Of a stretch of DNA of 64,000 bases, positions 35,786 through 41,030 are shown piece after piece. The notes beneath the pieces are model-generated. The model made no database searches and was not told the DNA's origin. It saw only the letters and a list, made by a program, of their open reading frames with translations. The position numbers and the translations under genes are program-made. The stretch lies in the IMG/VR virus record IMGVR_UViG_3300041809_000308, positions 1 through 64,000 of that record. The stretch is one strand, 5' to 3'. Positions within the stretch are counted from its first letter, which is position 1; each line of letters opens with the position of its first letter. The DNA is from a virus.

Positions 35786-36547
35786 TTACACCAGTTGTGT
35801 CAGGCCCTCATCGAAAAACTTCCACTGCATTGGAGGAAGGGACTCTCGAATTTTATCCGGGTTCTGGTAGCGAGTCAAGGTGAATCCCAGTTTCACCAGT
35901 GACCAGAACAATTGAATGCGGCTAATCAGTCCGGGACGTTCTTTCTGAAGTTCTGCAAAAACAGGGGGGATGTCGTCAGTGGGTACAAAACGGATGGCGG
36001 CTTCAAGCGACCACTTGTCCCCGGAGGCGATGTTGAACAACCCTGTTTCTGGAGCAATGGTGTCCCCCGTCAATTCGCGATATTGCTCAACAGCTACATC
36101 ACGGTATTTCAATGGGGCTTCAAGAGAAAGATGAACCTTGCCCGGTCCTACAAGATAGCCGAGAAACTTTGCCACGGTGCCTTCATCGTCAAATTCAATC
36201 GGGTCGATACTCAGGTAGTATGGACGGAGAGCCTTCTGCTCTTCTCGAATGTTCTTTTCCTTGGCGGCGTCAACTTCATTGACATCTTGTACGGTGTCAA
36301 AAGGAACGGTCCACGACCGTCCGTTCTTGCCTTTGATTGTCGCCGTATCGCCTACTAGGTCTACCAGTATACCACGCACCATCATGCCATTGGACAACCG
36401 ACCCCGGACCTCTATGTCCTCATCCTGCGCTTCTGCGAACTTAACTCTAATGGTCTCCCTGTGAGCGACCTTGAGTAGGTCCTTGTAGACATCCCCGCTT
36501 TCGAGCATAAACTCCCCCTGATATAGAAGAAAAAGCACTTTACTCAT
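35786..36547 (-). CDS. hypothetical protein (~240-253 aa)
   Basis: Long ORF; alternative start ATG (MLESG) after a GGGGAG RBS. Confidence 0.7.
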   Translation of the reverse strand: MSKVLFLLYQGEFMLESGDVYKDLLKVAHRETIRVKFAEAQDEDIEVRGRLSNGMMVRGILVDLVGDTATIKGKNGRSWTVPFDTVQDVNEVDAAKEKNIREEQKALRPYYLSIDPIEFDDEGTVAKFLGYLVGPGKVHLSLEAPLKYRDVAVEQYRELTGDTIAPETGLFNIASGDKWSLEAAIRFVPTDDIPPVFAELQKERPGLISRIQLFWSLVKLGFTLTRYQNPDKIRESLPPMQWKFFDEGLTQLV

Positions 36548-36729
36548 TCGTTGATTGATGGTACACTGGTAAATACTGAGAAAATGAAGGGGAACTCACA
36601 TGCAGCGACAAAGATTGAAAGTAGGGGATGTCAGAGTAGTGAACATCAATGGACGACCTGTCACGCTGGTCATCGGTCGGAAGTACGAGTTCAAGTTGAA
36701 GCCGGGGTGTCATCCACAACCCCCTACAG

Positions 36730-37779
36730 CTAGTTCTCCGCGCTTGCAAGTACCCGGCACACCGTACGACGGCTGAGGTTGAAGTACCGGGCAATGTCGC
36801 TCCGTGTTATACCCCTCTGAGCCCGAGCATAGGCTATGATGGTGGCATAATCTGCCTTACGTTTCTTTTCTCGTTCAGTGGGGTCTTCAAAGCGATGAAG
36901 CTGTGCTTGTCGTATCTTTTCTCTAGTTTCTGCGGAGTGGGTCTTCCCAATATGCGCTTGCCGGTTTTTCTCCAAGGTCTCAGGAACTAGACTCGCCTGA
37001 CGTATCTTTTCACGCTCCGCAGGGTCTTCATAGTGACAAAGCAAAGCCTGTCGTATCTTCTCTCTATGTTCAGGAGATAAAGGTCTCCCTAGCTTGGCCT
37101 GTCGTATTTTTTCTCGACACTCAGAAGAGTGAGGTTTTCGGGAACTCCCTAAGTTCGCTTGTCGTATCTTCTCTCTATGTTCAGGAGATAGGGGTTTTCC
37201 TAACTTAGCTTTTCGTATGTTTTCTCTAGCTGCGGGAGAGCGAGTTTTACCCAAACAAGCCTGACTTGTCTTTTCTCGTTCCGCAGAAATTGCATAACGA
37301 CGACCAGCGGCTTGACTTGCTTTTTCTCGCGCCATTGGATTTTCAAAATAATGAATAGTGGCTTGTCGATTTCTCTCCCGCACCGAGGGGTCTTCAAAGT
37401 AGCGACGTAAGGATTTGCTTATCTTTTCACGGGATTCAGGTGTAGGAACTCCCCCCTCTCCTCCTTCTGTCATGTTGTAGCCGTTACTCAGGGTACTGTA
37501 GAACTGGATGCAGAATTTCTCCACGTCATCGAGTAAATCTTCAGCTTCAGCTTTCACAGTCGCTATCGTCTTTACTTCAAAAGCATCCCGCCCGTATTTT
37601 CGGATAGCTCTATGAATTGCGTACTCACTCGCCCGTTTAGCGTCTGCTAGATGATGATTCCACCGATGTTTCACGGTTTTAATGGTCTTTCCCACATACT
37701 GTTTTCCGTTAATTTTGTTTGTAACCAAGTAGATATACCCGACCATATCCGTTACTCCGTGTTCAATTTTTTTCCCCAT
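36730..37779 (-). mobile_element. GIY-YIG homing endonuclease with many NUMOD3 repeats and C-terminal HTH
   Basis: GYIYLVTNKINGKQYVGKT, GYNMTEGGEG, about 9 xExREKIRQA-type repeats, terminal ITRSDIARYFNLSRRTV HTH. Confidence 0.9.
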
Positions 37780-38348
37780 CTTGTTTTCTTCATGAAAGTC
37801 ACAGATGTGATTTCATGTCCGTTGGGTCGGTTAGTTCTCTTCCCTTGCGGAGTTCCACCACAATCCCGCTTCTCTAATTTCCATCCCGCCGCTTTGAGAC
37901 TGGTTCCGGGTTCGGTCTCCAAAATGTACGTTTGAATTTTGCGGTAGCCAAGTGCCTTGGCGGCCTTAGCACTCGCTCCGTACAAAAAGCTGCAAGCGTT
38001 GTCAGTACCATTCGTAGCCAGTCGGCACACTTCAATCGTCTTCCCATCATCGAGAGCCCTGCACGCGGGTCGCATACATATCGCTACACCCACTAACTCT
38101 CCGTTCTTCTCACACCCAATGCTGAACTTGGCAACCCGAATTGGTTTATGGTGACGGTGCCACCGTTCGACCGCTGCATTACTCTGCCAAAGATGAAGGG
38201 GCACCACCTTCAACTTCCCGGCTTGCCTGAGGGCTCGGGCAGCTTTCATTTTCTGCCGACGACGATACGCTCGTTGAGCAGCGGCGTGGTCCTTGTGAAT
38301 CTTGGGACGCCCAACCTTGCGTTCGGGTGATTTAATTGGTTTCGTCAC
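37752..38348 (-). CDS. XF1762-family protein (Mom-like GNAT fold, putative DNA-modification enzyme)
   Basis: WHRHHKP, FSIG...LVGVAI.MRP.CRALDDG.TIEVCRLATNGT.NACSFLYGA...A.ALGYRKI.TYIL..EPGTSLKAAGW is the XF1762 signature. Confidence 0.8.
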   Translation of the reverse strand: MTKPIKSPERKVGRPKIHKDHAAAQRAYRRRQKMKAARALRQAGKLKVVPLHLWQSNAAVERWHRHHKPIRVAKFSIGCEKNGELVGVAICMRPACRALDDGKTIEVCRLATNGTDNACSFLYGASAKAAKALGYRKIQTYILETEPGTSLKAAGWKLEKRDCGGTPQGKRTNRPNGHEITSVTFMKKTRWGKKLNTE

Positions 38349-38356
38349 TCTGGTTC

Positions 38357-38429
38357 TGGAGCGAGGGGGAGGATTCGATACTCCATTCTCTGTGGGGGTA
38401 CCATAGAGTCTTACTTAGATGACCCTCGC
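38357..38429 (-). tRNA. non-canonical tRNA-Gly-like gene (anticodon ACC by position), CCA encoded
   Basis: GCGAGGG/CCCTCGC 7-bp acceptor with Gly identity G1-C72, C2-G71, G3-C70, U73 and CCA. D-loop lacks GG; T-loop is ATCGAAT; anticodon stem CTATG/CACAG around loop GTACCCC. Confidence 0.7.
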
Positions 38430-38443
38430 ATGAAGTCTAATAC

Positions 38444-39091
38444 TCAATCTCTCTGGTTGAAAGGCCAACGCCAACGAATCTCATCCGACAGGGTTTTCAA
38501 ATAATCCCCGTATAGCACTCGTTTGGAGTTTTGCAGTTCTTTTTTATGCGGTAGGCTCTTCTCAATCTCTGGCATAACATCCCTCGCCAGCACGGCTGCA
38601 CGGATGACTCCACCGCCATTATCCTCAGAAACTGTAACAGGAACAATGAGTACATCCTGATGCTCCAATTTGAACAATTCATCCGTGTGCGACTGACTCT
38701 GGTTCCCACCCCGGTCTGCGTAACCAAAGAGGAAGGAGGCGGTGAACACCCTTTGCATTTCAAGAGTCTGTGACTTAACCGCGATTTGTAAAGTCCCACA
38801 GCTTCCTGATGGGAAAAACAAATCAGGCTTCCAAGATTTCTCTCCCTTTTTGTAGGTCTTGGTGTCGGGCTCCTCTAATATAAACCCACGGGAGCGTAGA
38901 TACCGATAAACAAGGAACTCGCCCATCTTACCCTCACGGGTTTGATGAAATATACGGAAGCGGTCTGACTGTCCACGTTCTTCGTAGTAATCTATTGAGG
39001 TCTGATAAGACTCCTCGGCGAAAGCACGACATCTCTCAATATCGCCGAGTTCAAACTTGATACGTATGTCATCCATCGCTCTTGTCTCCAA
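38444..39091 (-). CDS. putative PD-(D/E)XK nuclease-fold protein
   Basis: GKMGEFLV...PD...KPDL...IAVKSQ arrangement resembles the E...PD...(D/E)xK motif, but the acidic residue before K is replaced by A. Confidence 0.5.
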   Translation of the reverse strand: METRAMDDIRIKFELGDIERCRAFAEESYQTSIDYYEERGQSDRFRIFHQTREGKMGEFLVYRYLRSRGFILEEPDTKTYKKGEKSWKPDLFFPSGSCGTLQIAVKSQTLEMQRVFTASFLFGYADRGGNQSQSHTDELFKLEHQDVLIVPVTVSEDNGGGVIRAAVLARDVMPEIEKSLPHKKELQNSKRVLYGDYLKTLSDEIRWRWPFNQRD

Positions 39092-40301
39092 AATTCTTGG
39101 TTAGCAACCACATCAACTCTTGAGTGCGATGTGATGGTTCTTTAGTAAGAAAGCCTGAACCCCGCCCATTCTCATACGGGATGTGGATGTTCTTGAATTC
39201 GAACTGCTCCTTGGTCCCGTCAACGATGTGCCCAGTAGCCGGGTGCTTGAGGTACCAGTGAGTTGTGTTGTTCGCCTCGGGGACTCGAACCACCTGTGGC
39301 TTGTATCCTCGGGTCTTGCCCCACTGATGATACAGATACTCAGCCATGATGTAGCAGTGACCGAACGTCTTGTGCTGACCCTCAGCCTGTGCTCTGTATT
39401 CAGGGGAGAGCAACTCAAGTGTGAGCGCCTGTTGGGCCTGCCAGATGAGGAAATCAGCCACCGGCTGACGCATCTCATCTTCAATGATAACCACATCACC
39501 AGCCGTCCAGAATTTCTTGCCCAAATAGGACTGTCGAATCTGAGTCTTGCGTTTAGCGATGCGTTTTTCTTCCGGGGTCTTACCTTTCCACGAGGAAGCG
39601 TACTCACCTTCAACCACCTTGTTAAAACCCTTCCTCCATTTGCAGAAGGTATTCTTCGGTATAGTGTTACCGTACTTTCGGGTAGACTTACCTTCCACTT
39701 GGTTCATGCCGGTGCCTTGAGGGTGCCCCACAGCCTTACCAGCCGTTGCCCCAACGAACTTCCAGCCAGTGTCAATGTAGCCGCGCCCGTCGCCACGTCC
39801 GACCGAAGGATCAGGCTCGATGAATGTCTCGAAGCCATAGACCGGGAAACCATAGATGTCCTGCCATACTACAGCAACAGCTTTCTCCCACAGCGACAGA
39901 GCACGTCCAAAAAGCCCTTTCTCATGGTTCGTAAGACAATAGACAGTATTGTCTACTATACCGTTCATCCACCGGGACATTCGTTCTTTGGTCTTCATCT
40001 CTTTAGAGATGCCAAAGAACTCATCCCGCTTCGCTGTACACTTCACAGCACCACCGCCCGAGATAATCCCGGCGAGTTCTCCGTTGTACCAGATTAGAAA
40101 ATGGATTTGCTGTCCACGGTCGCCAAACTTCAACCCCTGCTCTTTCCGTTCTTTGGCGGTGAGGACTACACCGCTATTAGGAATGGCAACTCCGTCTTTT
40201 TCATCAAGCTTCAAGGAAGCGATGTAGTGAGTTTCTCTCACCTGTGTGAAGCGTGGGTCACTCGCGGAGACAAACTCAAGGTATAGAGACGGGACTTCCA
40301 T
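39069..40301 (-). CDS. DUF4338/DruA-like (Mom-superfamily GNAT) domain fused to a papain/transglutaminase-like Cys-His-Asp domain
   Basis: HY...FLIW...LAGII......KRDEFFG...W...YG...GFETFIEP...G.GY...GW.FVG.TAG in the N-terminal part; GHCY..AE.LYH...THWYL...VDGT in the C-terminal part. Confidence 0.65.
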   Translation of the reverse strand: MEVPSLYLEFVSASDPRFTQVRETHYIASLKLDEKDGVAIPNSGVVLTAKERKEQGLKFGDRGQQIHFLIWYNGELAGIISGGGAVKCTAKRDEFFGISKEMKTKERMSRWMNGIVDNTVYCLTNHEKGLFGRALSLWEKAVAVVWQDIYGFPVYGFETFIEPDPSVGRGDGRGYIDTGWKFVGATAGKAVGHPQGTGMNQVEGKSTRKYGNTIPKNTFCKWRKGFNKVVEGEYASSWKGKTPEEKRIAKRKTQIRQSYLGKKFWTAGDVVIIEDEMRQPVADFLIWQAQQALTLELLSPEYRAQAEGQHKTFGHCYIMAEYLYHQWGKTRGYKPQVVRVPEANNTTHWYLKHPATGHIVDGTKEQFEFKNIHIPYENGRGSGFLTKEPSHRTQELMWLLTKNFGDKSDG

Positions 40302-40337
40302 ATACCTTGTTAATACCCGGTTTTTGAAAAAGGAAAA

Positions 40338-40476
40338 GCCCCTTCGTCAACTCACTTCCTTGCCAGCGGATGCGTCCACCCGCAGACTTTAGAAAGGTCC
40401 TTTACTGCCGTGTCCCGACGCTCGGATTTATGGGACTGCCGACGAACAGTAAGCAAGGGTGAGTTGACGAAGAGGC
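40338..40476 (-). ncRNA. structured RNA unit 1 (multibranch, 14-bp closing stem, followed by U-rich tract)
   Basis: CTTCGTCAACTCAC (40342-55) pairs perfectly with GTGAGTTGACGAAG (40459-72); internal hairpins whose G-U pairs favour the - strand. Confidence 0.55.
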
Positions 40477-40479
40477 TCT

Positions 40480-40563
40480 CGTCCGGGTGAGTGGTACGCC
40501 GTGTCGAATGGCTACGCCTCACGGCCATGCCATACTGCGGACTCCTTCAGTCTCACCCGGACG
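40480..40563. ncRNA. structured RNA unit 2 (12-bp closing stem with internal hairpins)
   Basis: CGTCCGGGTGAG (40480-91) / CTCACCCGGACG (40552-63); internal GCCGTG/CACGGC. Confidence 0.5.
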
Positions 40564-40571
40564 AAACTTGA

Positions 40572-40669
40572 TGGCGGCGTTGCAGGGCGAACCTTGTTGC
40601 CGGGGCTTAAACGTCATTGTTACGGACGCAGGGCGAAACCTTGTTGCCCGGACTTAAACATCGCCGCCA
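40572..40669. ncRNA. structured RNA unit 3 (closing stem enclosing two ~31-nt direct repeats)
   Basis: TGGCGGCG/CGCCGCCA closing stem; repeats GCAGGGCGAA(A)CCTTGTTGCCxGGxCTTAAAC at 40582-40612 and 40628-40659. Confidence 0.5.
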
Positions 40670-40672
40670 AAC

Positions 40673-40798
40673 TGGGTGCCCCGCTCAGGATTCGAACCCA
40701 AGTCCACCCCACAACTCTAATACTCGCAGCCGAGAGAAGCCGACTTTTCTCAGAGTTCTCTCAGTAGAGTGTCCTAACCAAGCTAGACCACAGGGCAC
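40673..40798 (-). tRNA. tRNA-like RNA (126 nt) with ~38-nt insertion in the anticodon loop
   Basis: (G)TGCCCTG/CGGGGCA(C)-CCA acceptor, canonical D arm TGGTCTAGCTTGGTTAGGAC, anticodon stem CTCTA/TAGAG enclosing 45 nt, T arm GGTTCGAATCC. Confidence 0.7.
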
Positions 40799-40806
40799 AA
40801 CAACAT

Positions 40807-40973
40807 TGGAGCAAAGCTTTACGCCGAGGGCTATCGTTTCGAACCGCTTTCCCTCTTAAGGAGTCCCTTCCTCCGCCGACTACAAGGCGGTGTGCTCACG
40901 CCTAACATTGGGCACCATTTTGTCGGAGTGCGCTACGGTGACCGTTCGCTTTCCCCGGCTGCGCTGTTGCCTC
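40807..40973 (-). ncRNA. possible structured RNA unit at the transcript 5' end, ending in GCTCCA
   Basis: Starts ~7 nt below the TATACT -10; hairpins CCGCC/GGCGG, GAGGG/CCCTC, ACGGT/ACCGT; weak terminal pairing GAGGCAA/TTGCTC; no credible ORF. Confidence 0.35.
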
Positions 40974-40979
40974 ATTCAT

Positions 40980-41030
40980 AGTATACCTGAGTCACCCAAG
41001 TTTTGGCTAGTTTTTTGGAAATTTTTTTAC
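40980..41030 (-). promoter_or_regulatory. sigma70-like early promoter TAGCCA-N18-TATACT driving the ncRNA cluster
   Basis: -35 at 41004-41009, -10 at 40980-40985, upstream A-tracts (UP-element like); same design as 35704-35733. Confidence 0.65.

Follow-up and report, generated by a model that had tools for sequence, protein, structure and literature searches.

In Staphylococcus, non-proteinogenic tRNA-Gly species feed FemXAB for the pentaglycine bridge of peptidoglycan, and in Escherichia coli the thrS leader acts as a tRNA-like translational operator. To our knowledge, Mom is the only enzyme known to modify DNA with a charged tRNA, and its published mechanism assumes that this tRNA comes from the host pool. 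Mom of bacteriophage Mu moves glycine from Gly-tRNA-Gly to N6 of adenine in double-stranded DNA (Silva et al., bioRxiv 2023; Nat Commun 2026, PMC13219725), a use of glycyl-tRNA-Gly which an earlier, sequence-only reading of the DNA described here had put forward and which is thereby borne out; all three tRNA-Gly isoacceptors of E. coli work in this reaction and Gly-tRNA-Ala does not, so that Mom probably reads the acceptor end, and a phage-encoded donor tRNA is not discussed there (PMC13219725). A 76-bp tRNA-Gly-like "pseudo-tRNA" was described in the first 150 bp of mom homologues on ssrA genomic islands of Dehalococcoides (McMurdie et al. 2011, PMC3146451); no function was proposed at the time because the use of tRNA by Mom was not yet known, and no paper in the literature searched joins the two observations. 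Here we describe a 73-nt tRNA-Gly-like element which precedes the gene of a Mom-like protein of the XF1762 family in the first 64 kb (64,000 nt, hereafter the window) of a 78.8-kb IMG/VR virus record (IMGVR_UViG_3300041809_000308); to judge from comparison with its relatives, the element is a real RNA gene under selection and derived from tRNA-Gly. The record is about 25% complete according to CheckV and therefore represents a fragment of a jumbo phage; the same DNA recurs across wetland and peat metagenomes.

The sequence-only reading had described the element accurately, as both sequence and fold confirm. Its acceptor stem has all seven base pairs formed (GCGAGGG/CCCUCGC) and is followed by U73 and an encoded CCA; the D arm has a 3-bp stem and the loop AAGUA, without GG; the anticodon-type stem has 8 bp with one A·C mismatch and the loop UACCC, which results in the anticodon ACC and a C at position 37; the T arm has a 4-bp stem with a U53·C61 mismatch and the loop AUCGAAU. 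The cloverleaf is the minimum-energy fold (-22.5 kcal/mol, z = -2.1) and is retained when 80 nt of downstream mRNA are added, with no pairing to the start codon. The bacterial tRNA-Gly identity set consists of U73, G1-C72, C2-G71, G3-C70, C35, and C36; all six determinants are present in the element and are invariant in the copy found in a second lineage (L002, see below), where 16 other positions differ. The claim that the identity elements for glycyl-tRNA synthetase (GlyRS) are kept thus stands, with G1-C72, C2-G71, G3-C70, U73, CCA, and U33-N-C35-C36 the same in both lineages, and so does the claim that features required for translation are lost, as D-loop GG, T54, and G53-C61 are gone. A four-arm cloverleaf with a 7-bp acceptor stem and 3′ NCCA was found in both lineages; the elbow elements (G18 G19, T54-Psi55-C56, G53-C61) were found in neither the window copy nor that of L002, the T-loop of which reads GUCGAAG and which shares U53·C61 with the window.

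Standard tools do not detect the element: ARAGORN with default settings reports no tRNA gene in the window, and in an Rfam search of 3.5 kb nothing matches the tRNA family at E <= 10, nor does anything at the gathering score. With the option -ps80, ARAGORN gives the element as tRNA-Gly(acc), which is one of 58 low-score calls in 79 kb, the other 57 being spurious; by its own sequence the element is indistinguishable from noise, and the case therefore rests on its relatives.

L002 and L003 are loci on two related jumbo-phage contigs of 183.7 and 231.1 kb; their Mom-like protein is 77% identical to that of the window, and in both the element is present in a version of 75 nt. The versions of the window and L002 share 76% identity, as compared to 39% for the 4-fold degenerate sites of the Mom-like gene, 44% for its third codon positions, and about 47% for the 60-nt flanks of the element. 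Eight of the 16 substitutions between the copies make up four compensatory pairs, two in the acceptor stem (A4-U69 to G-C and G6-C67 to U-A) and two in the anticodon stem; when the same number of substitutions was placed randomly, the probability of obtaining at least four such pairs was 1.7e-4, and controls with slid partners gave no compensatory pairs. The L002 copy alone folds into the same cloverleaf; one of its T-stem pairs is G·A, and the anticodon loop is the least conserved part of the element.

A covariance model (R1) built from the window and L002 copies had a single additional match among the relatives, namely a canonical tRNA-Gly(GCC) of phage (43 bits, E 5e-9) which belongs to a cluster of six ordinary tRNAs; the other five, including tRNA-Gly(UCC), gave no match at E <= 1. 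As the only other match of R1 is the canonical tRNA-Gly(GCC) of a relative, the element derives from tRNA-Gly. In a four-way alignment, U33-N34-C35-C36 reads UACC in the window, UUCC in L002, and UGCC and UUCC in the two canonical genes, and the element lacks GG in the D-loop and T54 in the T-loop. The related genomes G001 and G002 encode canonical tRNA-Gly(GCC) and tRNA-Gly(UCC), and because two normal tRNA-Gly genes already exist there, a deformed copy is not needed for decoding. Further copies were looked for in several ways: blastn of the 4-kb region against deposited phage genomes gave no match, two DNA-pattern scans of IMG/VR recovered only the L002/L003 lineage, R1, run on the window and on 55 neighbourhoods of XF1762 homologues (56 sources), found no more copies, and R1 with filters switched off found nothing further above noise in 10 kb of the window. 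Two apparent hits were discarded, the single one in a pattern scan of genome contigs, which is a chance match in a coding region of a betaproteobacterial metagenome-assembled genome, and a weak R1 match in L004, which is an unrelated tRNA-Ser according to ARAGORN. The element illustrates that selected tRNA-derived genes are missed by standard tRNA finders.

The coordinates and the gene order given in the sequence-only reading hold, with everything on the - strand. In the order of transcription, the features around the element, several of them open reading frames (ORFs) named by length in amino acids (aa), are:

40301-39069, - strand: 410-aa ORF, DruA/DUF4338-like in its N-terminal domain and conserved as part of the module
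39091-38444, - strand: 215-aa ORF, like nucleases of the PD-(D/E)XK fold
38430-38445, - strand: upstream motif GAGTATTAGA with a 6-nt spacer, overlapping the stop codon of the 215-aa ORF
38429-38357, - strand: 73-nt tRNA-Gly-derived RNA with the 3′ end UCCA
38348-37752, - strand: gene of the 198-aa XF1762-family, Mom-like GNAT, with a GTG start 8 nt past the CCA of the element
37779-36730, - strand: GIY-YIG homing endonuclease gene (Pfam GIY-YIG and NUMOD3, PHROG 314)
36547-35786, - strand: gene of a 253-aa protein which accompanies the Mom-like gene, with a possible N-terminal Sm/SH3-like barrel

In L002 the order is element, an ORF of 140-160 aa, Mom-like gene, homologue of the 253-aa ORF, and homologue of the DruA-like gene; the module is therefore conserved but rearranged, with the GIY-YIG gene and the gene of the 215-aa protein peculiar to the window. 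A third lineage is represented in DNA runs X2 and X3 by a contig which matches the window only over 38357-38443 and is foreign on both flanks; the match starts at the A of CCA (38357) and takes in the 14-nt upstream motif. Its downstream flank reads CCA-AGCTTGATT-ATG GGT GAA GGC ATG AGT CAC and encodes MGEGMSH, the exact N-terminus of P0011, a Mom-like homologue sharing about 72-75% identity with the Mom-like protein of the window. The distance from the element to the start codon is 8-9 nt in two lineages, and one ORF intervenes in L002. Run X5 contains a variant of the element with T60 changed to C, plus a more diverged copy sharing only the 5′ half. In all, no fewer than three lineages show the element linked to a Mom-like gene.

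The motif GAGTATTAGA sits 6 nt before G1 of the element and occurs only twice in the 78.8-kb record. The sequence AGTATTA is also kept before the element of L002 and before a canonical tRNA-Gly in L101, and a version of the motif stands directly before the Mom-like genes of homologues which lack the element (L081, L082, L017). It probably is a -10-like element of a phage promoter, with the transcript starting at or near G1; a scan with the sigma-70 consensus gave no promoter at this place. In metatranscriptome run X16, a 208-nt contig of 100% identity spans 38264-38471 and hints at a precursor transcribed through into the Mom-like gene; over the 3.7 kb examined there is only one other RNA piece, and the uncovered parts are uninformative. 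This other contig covers about 36589-36819, including a small 84-aa ORF (36540-36794) flanked by the GIY-YIG gene and the 253-aa ORF, and may stem from another abundant RNA or from a highly expressed small gene. The only other copy of GAGTATTAGA in the record lies within a tRNA at 40673-40797 (- strand), in the ORF-free stretch 40326-41030; this tRNA has canonical D and T arms, but its anticodon loop is extended by about 40-50 inserted nt, among which the motif lies, and ARAGORN gives it as tRNA-Leu(gag), and only when introns are allowed.

The 198-aa protein belongs to the XF1762 family, a common one in prophages (NF045478, E 2.7e-47, 160.2 bits with the cut-off at 50), and to PHROG 1384, annotated as "Mom-like" (E 4.6e-32). 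The AlphaFold2 model of the protein (mean predicted local distance difference test score, pLDDT, 86) has Mu Mom as its top fold match in the PDB (8bv8_B, E 5.3e-8, template modeling score 0.61/0.60), which leads other GNATs by a small margin only; Mom was not reached when PDB sequences were searched by profile. In Mom, H58, R111, S124, D149, and R151 are essential. In a weak hhalign alignment (E 0.04, low probability), H58, E108, and R111 of Mom fall on H64, E106, and R109, which are invariant in the family, and from their spacing S120 and E146 would correspond to S124 and D149 of Mom. Residues 164-187 form a conserved basic segment of 24 residues between the last two strands, modelled as coil with a pLDDT of 55-71; a helix-turn-helix is not seen in the model at the place where Mom has its helix-turn-helix-like insertion (about 175-209). 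Both proteins have the GNAT fold, and structurally the window protein matches Mom best, but it is of the shorter XF1762 family, stays below the Pfam cut-off for Mom, and is modelled with a conserved basic loop as coil where Mom has the essential insertion. Mu uses host tRNA and encodes none, whereas the window enzyme adjoins a tRNA-like element, and it is the acceptor end, which Mu Mom appears to read, that the element keeps. Compared by description, the element and the Dehalococcoides pseudo-tRNA have several traits in common: both are tRNA-Gly-like, rejected or flagged by annotation pipelines, coupled to a Mom homologue, and conserved; the pseudo-tRNA, however, lies within the annotated mom frame on bacterial integrative islands, the window element in an intergenic region of jumbo phages, next to a gene of the XF1762 type.

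The best single explanation, tentative as it is and carrying a little less than even confidence, would be that the element is a non-translating glycyl donor for the adjacent Mom-like enzyme. What the element has lost would be the needs of the ribosome (D-loop GG, T54, G53-C61, and a regular geometry of the anticodon loop); what it keeps would be the needs of GlyRS and of an enzyme binding the acceptor end (G1-C72, C2-G71, G3-C70, U73, CCA, and U33-N34-C35-C36). Transcription would start from the short motif in front of it, the element being the first part of the Mom-like operon; it would then be released and glycylated by GlyRS, and would presumably serve the adjacent XF1762/Mom-like GNAT as a non-translating glycyl carrier; by analogy to Mu Mom, the enzyme would put the glycine on N6 of adenine in double-stranded phage DNA and thereby block restriction. 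Release and charging of the element, its avoidance of EF-Tu and the ribosome, its role as donor, and the tRNA dependence of XF1762 enzymes are inferred. Like the Staphylococcus tRNA-Gly species, the element is an extra species without D-loop GG or a canonical T-loop, and those species supply GNAT-fold transferases and not the ribosome; they are, however, recognisable tRNAs with normal anticodon loops encoded on the chromosome, while the core of the window element is far more degenerate and the glycine acceptor would be DNA. If the donor role is true, DNA hypermodification would be kept separate from translation, tRNA-dependent DNA modification would extend to the large XF1762 family, which would thus obtain its first functional handle, and the element would represent a phage "tRNA" of a new kind, employed outside the ribosome and parallel to the cell-wall tRNA-Gly of staphylococci; the odd tRNA-Gly-like "pseudo-tRNAs" noticed beside mom homologues since 2011 would be explained as well. 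The wider idea that some phages have a self-contained pathway from glycine to DNA, in which a private tRNA-Gly-derived RNA, unseen by the ribosome and by tRNA finders, is charged and used only by a Mom-type GNAT, is conceivable but on the whole rather doubtful.

Several points weigh against the donor role. The sequence-only reading had the element wedged between two GNAT genes, which are not constant partners, as in L002 the DruA-like gene is downstream of the Mom-like gene and an extra ORF lies between; nor is the nuclease a conserved partner, as homologues of the 215-aa protein are absent from G001 and G002. What stands of the dedicated donor proposed there is a selected tRNA-Gly-derived RNA coupled to Mom-like genes; a fixed partnership with GNAT and nuclease is weakened. 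The linkage to Mom-like genes extends over at least three lineages, but the element is absent within 4 kb of several close Mom-like homologues of 72-77% identity (L016, L017/L083, L081/L082, L084), and G006, the record containing L081 (93% complete according to CheckV), has no R1 match anywhere. A private RNA is therefore not something the Mom-like enzyme needs for its work, if it works at all, and the element is an accessory of one subclade. ARAGORN with default settings gave no tRNA-Gly in 96 loci around XF1762 homologues (535 kb), and the fully readable sequence variants of the element are two. The anticodon loop is irregular (5 nt in the minimum-energy fold of the window copy, off-centre in L002), which could hinder the reading of C35 and C36 by GlyRS. 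As only 8 nt separate the CCA from the start codon, releasing the element would cut the leader of the Mom-like mRNA; the X16 contig runs into both flanks and therefore represents a precursor at most, with carry-over of DNA a possibility. As for the enzyme, its score against Pfam Mom (PF25680) is 13.6 bits, below the gathering cut-off of 27.1 (E 0.055), a homologue of 57% identity reaching 24.6 bits, and no assay of any XF1762 protein was found in the literature searched.

Unlikely, yet to be taken seriously, is a role in cis, in which the Mom-like operon would begin with a mimic of tRNA-Gly and not with a glycine carrier. Recognised by the Mom-like enzyme, by GlyRS, or by another tRNA-binding factor, the element would be an operator which limits translation of a potentially toxic DNA modifier, or else a signal for processing or stability. 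This would fit the position of the element, which heads the Mom-like transcription unit in all three lineages and is 8-9 nt from the start codon in two of them, and it would fit the RNA contig, which runs uninterrupted from the element into the coding sequence of the Mom-like gene, so that the two are apparently co-transcribed; no terminator follows the element. Precedents are the thrS operator and the control of Mu mom by Com, which is translational according to database annotation. The thrS operator, like the element, is a tRNA mimic just upstream of a start codon, and the thrS product binds that tRNA; it comprises the anticodon arm only and no CCA, however, whereas the element is a whole cloverleaf with U73 and CCA, and in L002 an ORF intervenes. 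Because Mom binds the acceptor end of tRNA-Gly (PMC13219725), a mimic could titrate it, but the conserved C35 and C36 and the full four-arm fold exceed the needs of an acceptor-end mimic. Further, the 140-aa ORF between element and Mom-like gene in L002 and the in-context fold, in which the element does not pair to the region of the start codon, are difficult to reconcile with an operator, and in the homologues which lack the element the upstream motif directly precedes the gene, which therefore can be expressed without it.

Quite improbable is a trans-acting tRNA-like RNA with a job other than donating glycine to the Mom-like enzyme, either a decoy or sponge for host factors targeting tRNA-Gly or Gly-tRNA-Gly, such as TacT/AtaT-type GNAT toxins or anticodon nucleases, or else an RNA on which another module protein acts, for instance the 253-aa protein with its possible Sm-like barrel or the GNAT of DruA/DUF4338 type. 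The Mom-like gene is indeed accompanied by the genes of a further GNAT-type protein and of a conserved protein of unknown function, TacT-type toxins act on Gly-tRNA-Gly (cited in PMC13219725), and the Atlas neighbours of the 253-aa protein include Hfq-/Sm-like folds; the latter similarity is weak and comes from a model with a pLDDT of 0.53, no feature of the element is specific to a decoy, and the anticodon loop, the usual target of nucleases, is its least conserved part.

Less probable still, and very unlikely overall, is that the tRNA-like segment is a landmark for recombination or homing, kept for recognition by a mobile endonuclease or integrase and not for any action as RNA. In the window it lies between the PD-(D/E)XK gene upstream, the top fold match of which is I-Ssp6803I, and the GIY-YIG gene beyond the Mom-like gene; I-Ssp6803I is a homing enzyme with a tRNA gene as target, and the homology with the third lineage ends sharply at both ends of the element. 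The compensatory changes, however, keep the pairing of the RNA and not the DNA sequence, and the L002 lineage has the element with neither endonuclease beside it. That the element is nothing but a decaying pseudo-tRNA, a duplicate of a phage tRNA-Gly hitch-hiking beside the Mom-like gene, is hardly credible: its rejection by standard tRNA finders, its weak T stem with one pair now G·A in L002, and the many close homologues without it would fit decay, but 76% identity where 4-fold degenerate sites have 39%, the four compensatory pairs, and the fold of the L002 copy disfavour it, as does a near-identical element in a third genomic context.

Some close Mom-like homologues (L016:3720-3990, L019:226-555, L022:700-980) have, replacing the element, an N-terminal extension of 45 aa (..ESAQTG.GTPTNEVVGN..). 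Upstream of it is a conserved, apparently structured non-coding region with a GGACUC...GAGUCC stem, which shows changes on both strands between contigs and is followed by GGGCGGCGG-UUCUAGGUU-CCGCCGCCC. The extension of L016 type (about 45 aa, ..GTPTNEVVGN..) was considered as a hidden form of the element and dropped, as by eye the hairpin is a different one, with no UCCA end and no R1 match.

The genome G002 (IMGVR_UViG_3300029911_000001) encodes at about 148087-148794 (L107:1192-1899, + strand) a stand-alone class-II aminoacyl-tRNA synthetase core of 235 aa; in NCBIfam it matches nothing but glycine-tRNA ligases (NF003211, E 5e-14, with a score far short of the cut-off). Motifs 2 and 3 (the latter GLDRL) can be recognised, and an anticodon-binding domain is absent. 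The phage tRNA cluster is 5 kb away from the gene and the Mom-like module 37 kb, and a homologue of 60% identity is found on a phage contig (87% complete) which has neither a Mom-like gene nor an R1 match. This GlyRS-like core could be a matching private synthetase, although a phage lacking any Mom-like gene has it as well; as a linked partner of the module it was dropped because of the distance of 37 kb and because of that homologue.

The 253-aa ORF is 48% identical to L002:4570-5262, which directly follows the Mom-like gene of L002. Only 4 homologues of the protein are known, and two of them are on contigs of 3180 and 10665 nt, the same sizes as the contigs with the Mom-like proteins P0013 and P0011, which suggests that the pairing with a Mom-like gene exists there, too; apparently the gene always neighbours the Mom-like gene of this clade. 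The Atlas neighbours of its N-terminal 100 residues are SH3-like barrels of the Hfq, Sm, and RimP type, found with a poor model (pLDDT 0.53); the protein may possibly be an RNA-binding partner.

The 410-aa ORF matches Pfam DruA below the cut-off (E 0.002, 17.7 bits against 27); between its residues 2-257 and L002:5259-6083 the identity is 35%, and this L002 homologue does score above the cut-off (E 1.3e-10, 41.4 bits). DUF4338 is described as a GNAT domain (PMC10853773), so that the GNAT label given to this ORF in the sequence-only reading is supported by way of the L002 homologue. The label PD-(D/E)XK given there to the 215-aa ORF likewise fits: with an AlphaFold2 model (pLDDT 94), the VIA-align matches are I-Ssp6803I (Z 8.4), NhoI (7.7), and DpnI (6.9), then Hjc and PvuII, and the top rows of VIA-align and Foldseek are nearly all PD-(D/E)XK proteins at Z 8.4-5, with a Z of about 8 being borderline by the tool's own note. 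Further, E58, D90, and K106 are invariant or nearly so and D76 is nearly invariant. Weak matches to the tRNA-splicing endonuclease EndA (E 0.015) were treated as noise from the shared fold because the fold search favours DNA nucleases. Pairings of nucleases with Mom have been described in jumbo phages (PMC7824862); the 215-aa protein may be a mobile or free-standing endonuclease.

The GIY-YIG gene interrupts the arrangement of the Mom-like gene and its 253-aa partner and is absent from this place in L002. One X2 DNA contig skips 111 nt of it (37048-37160); deletion variants of the GIY-YIG gene therefore circulate.

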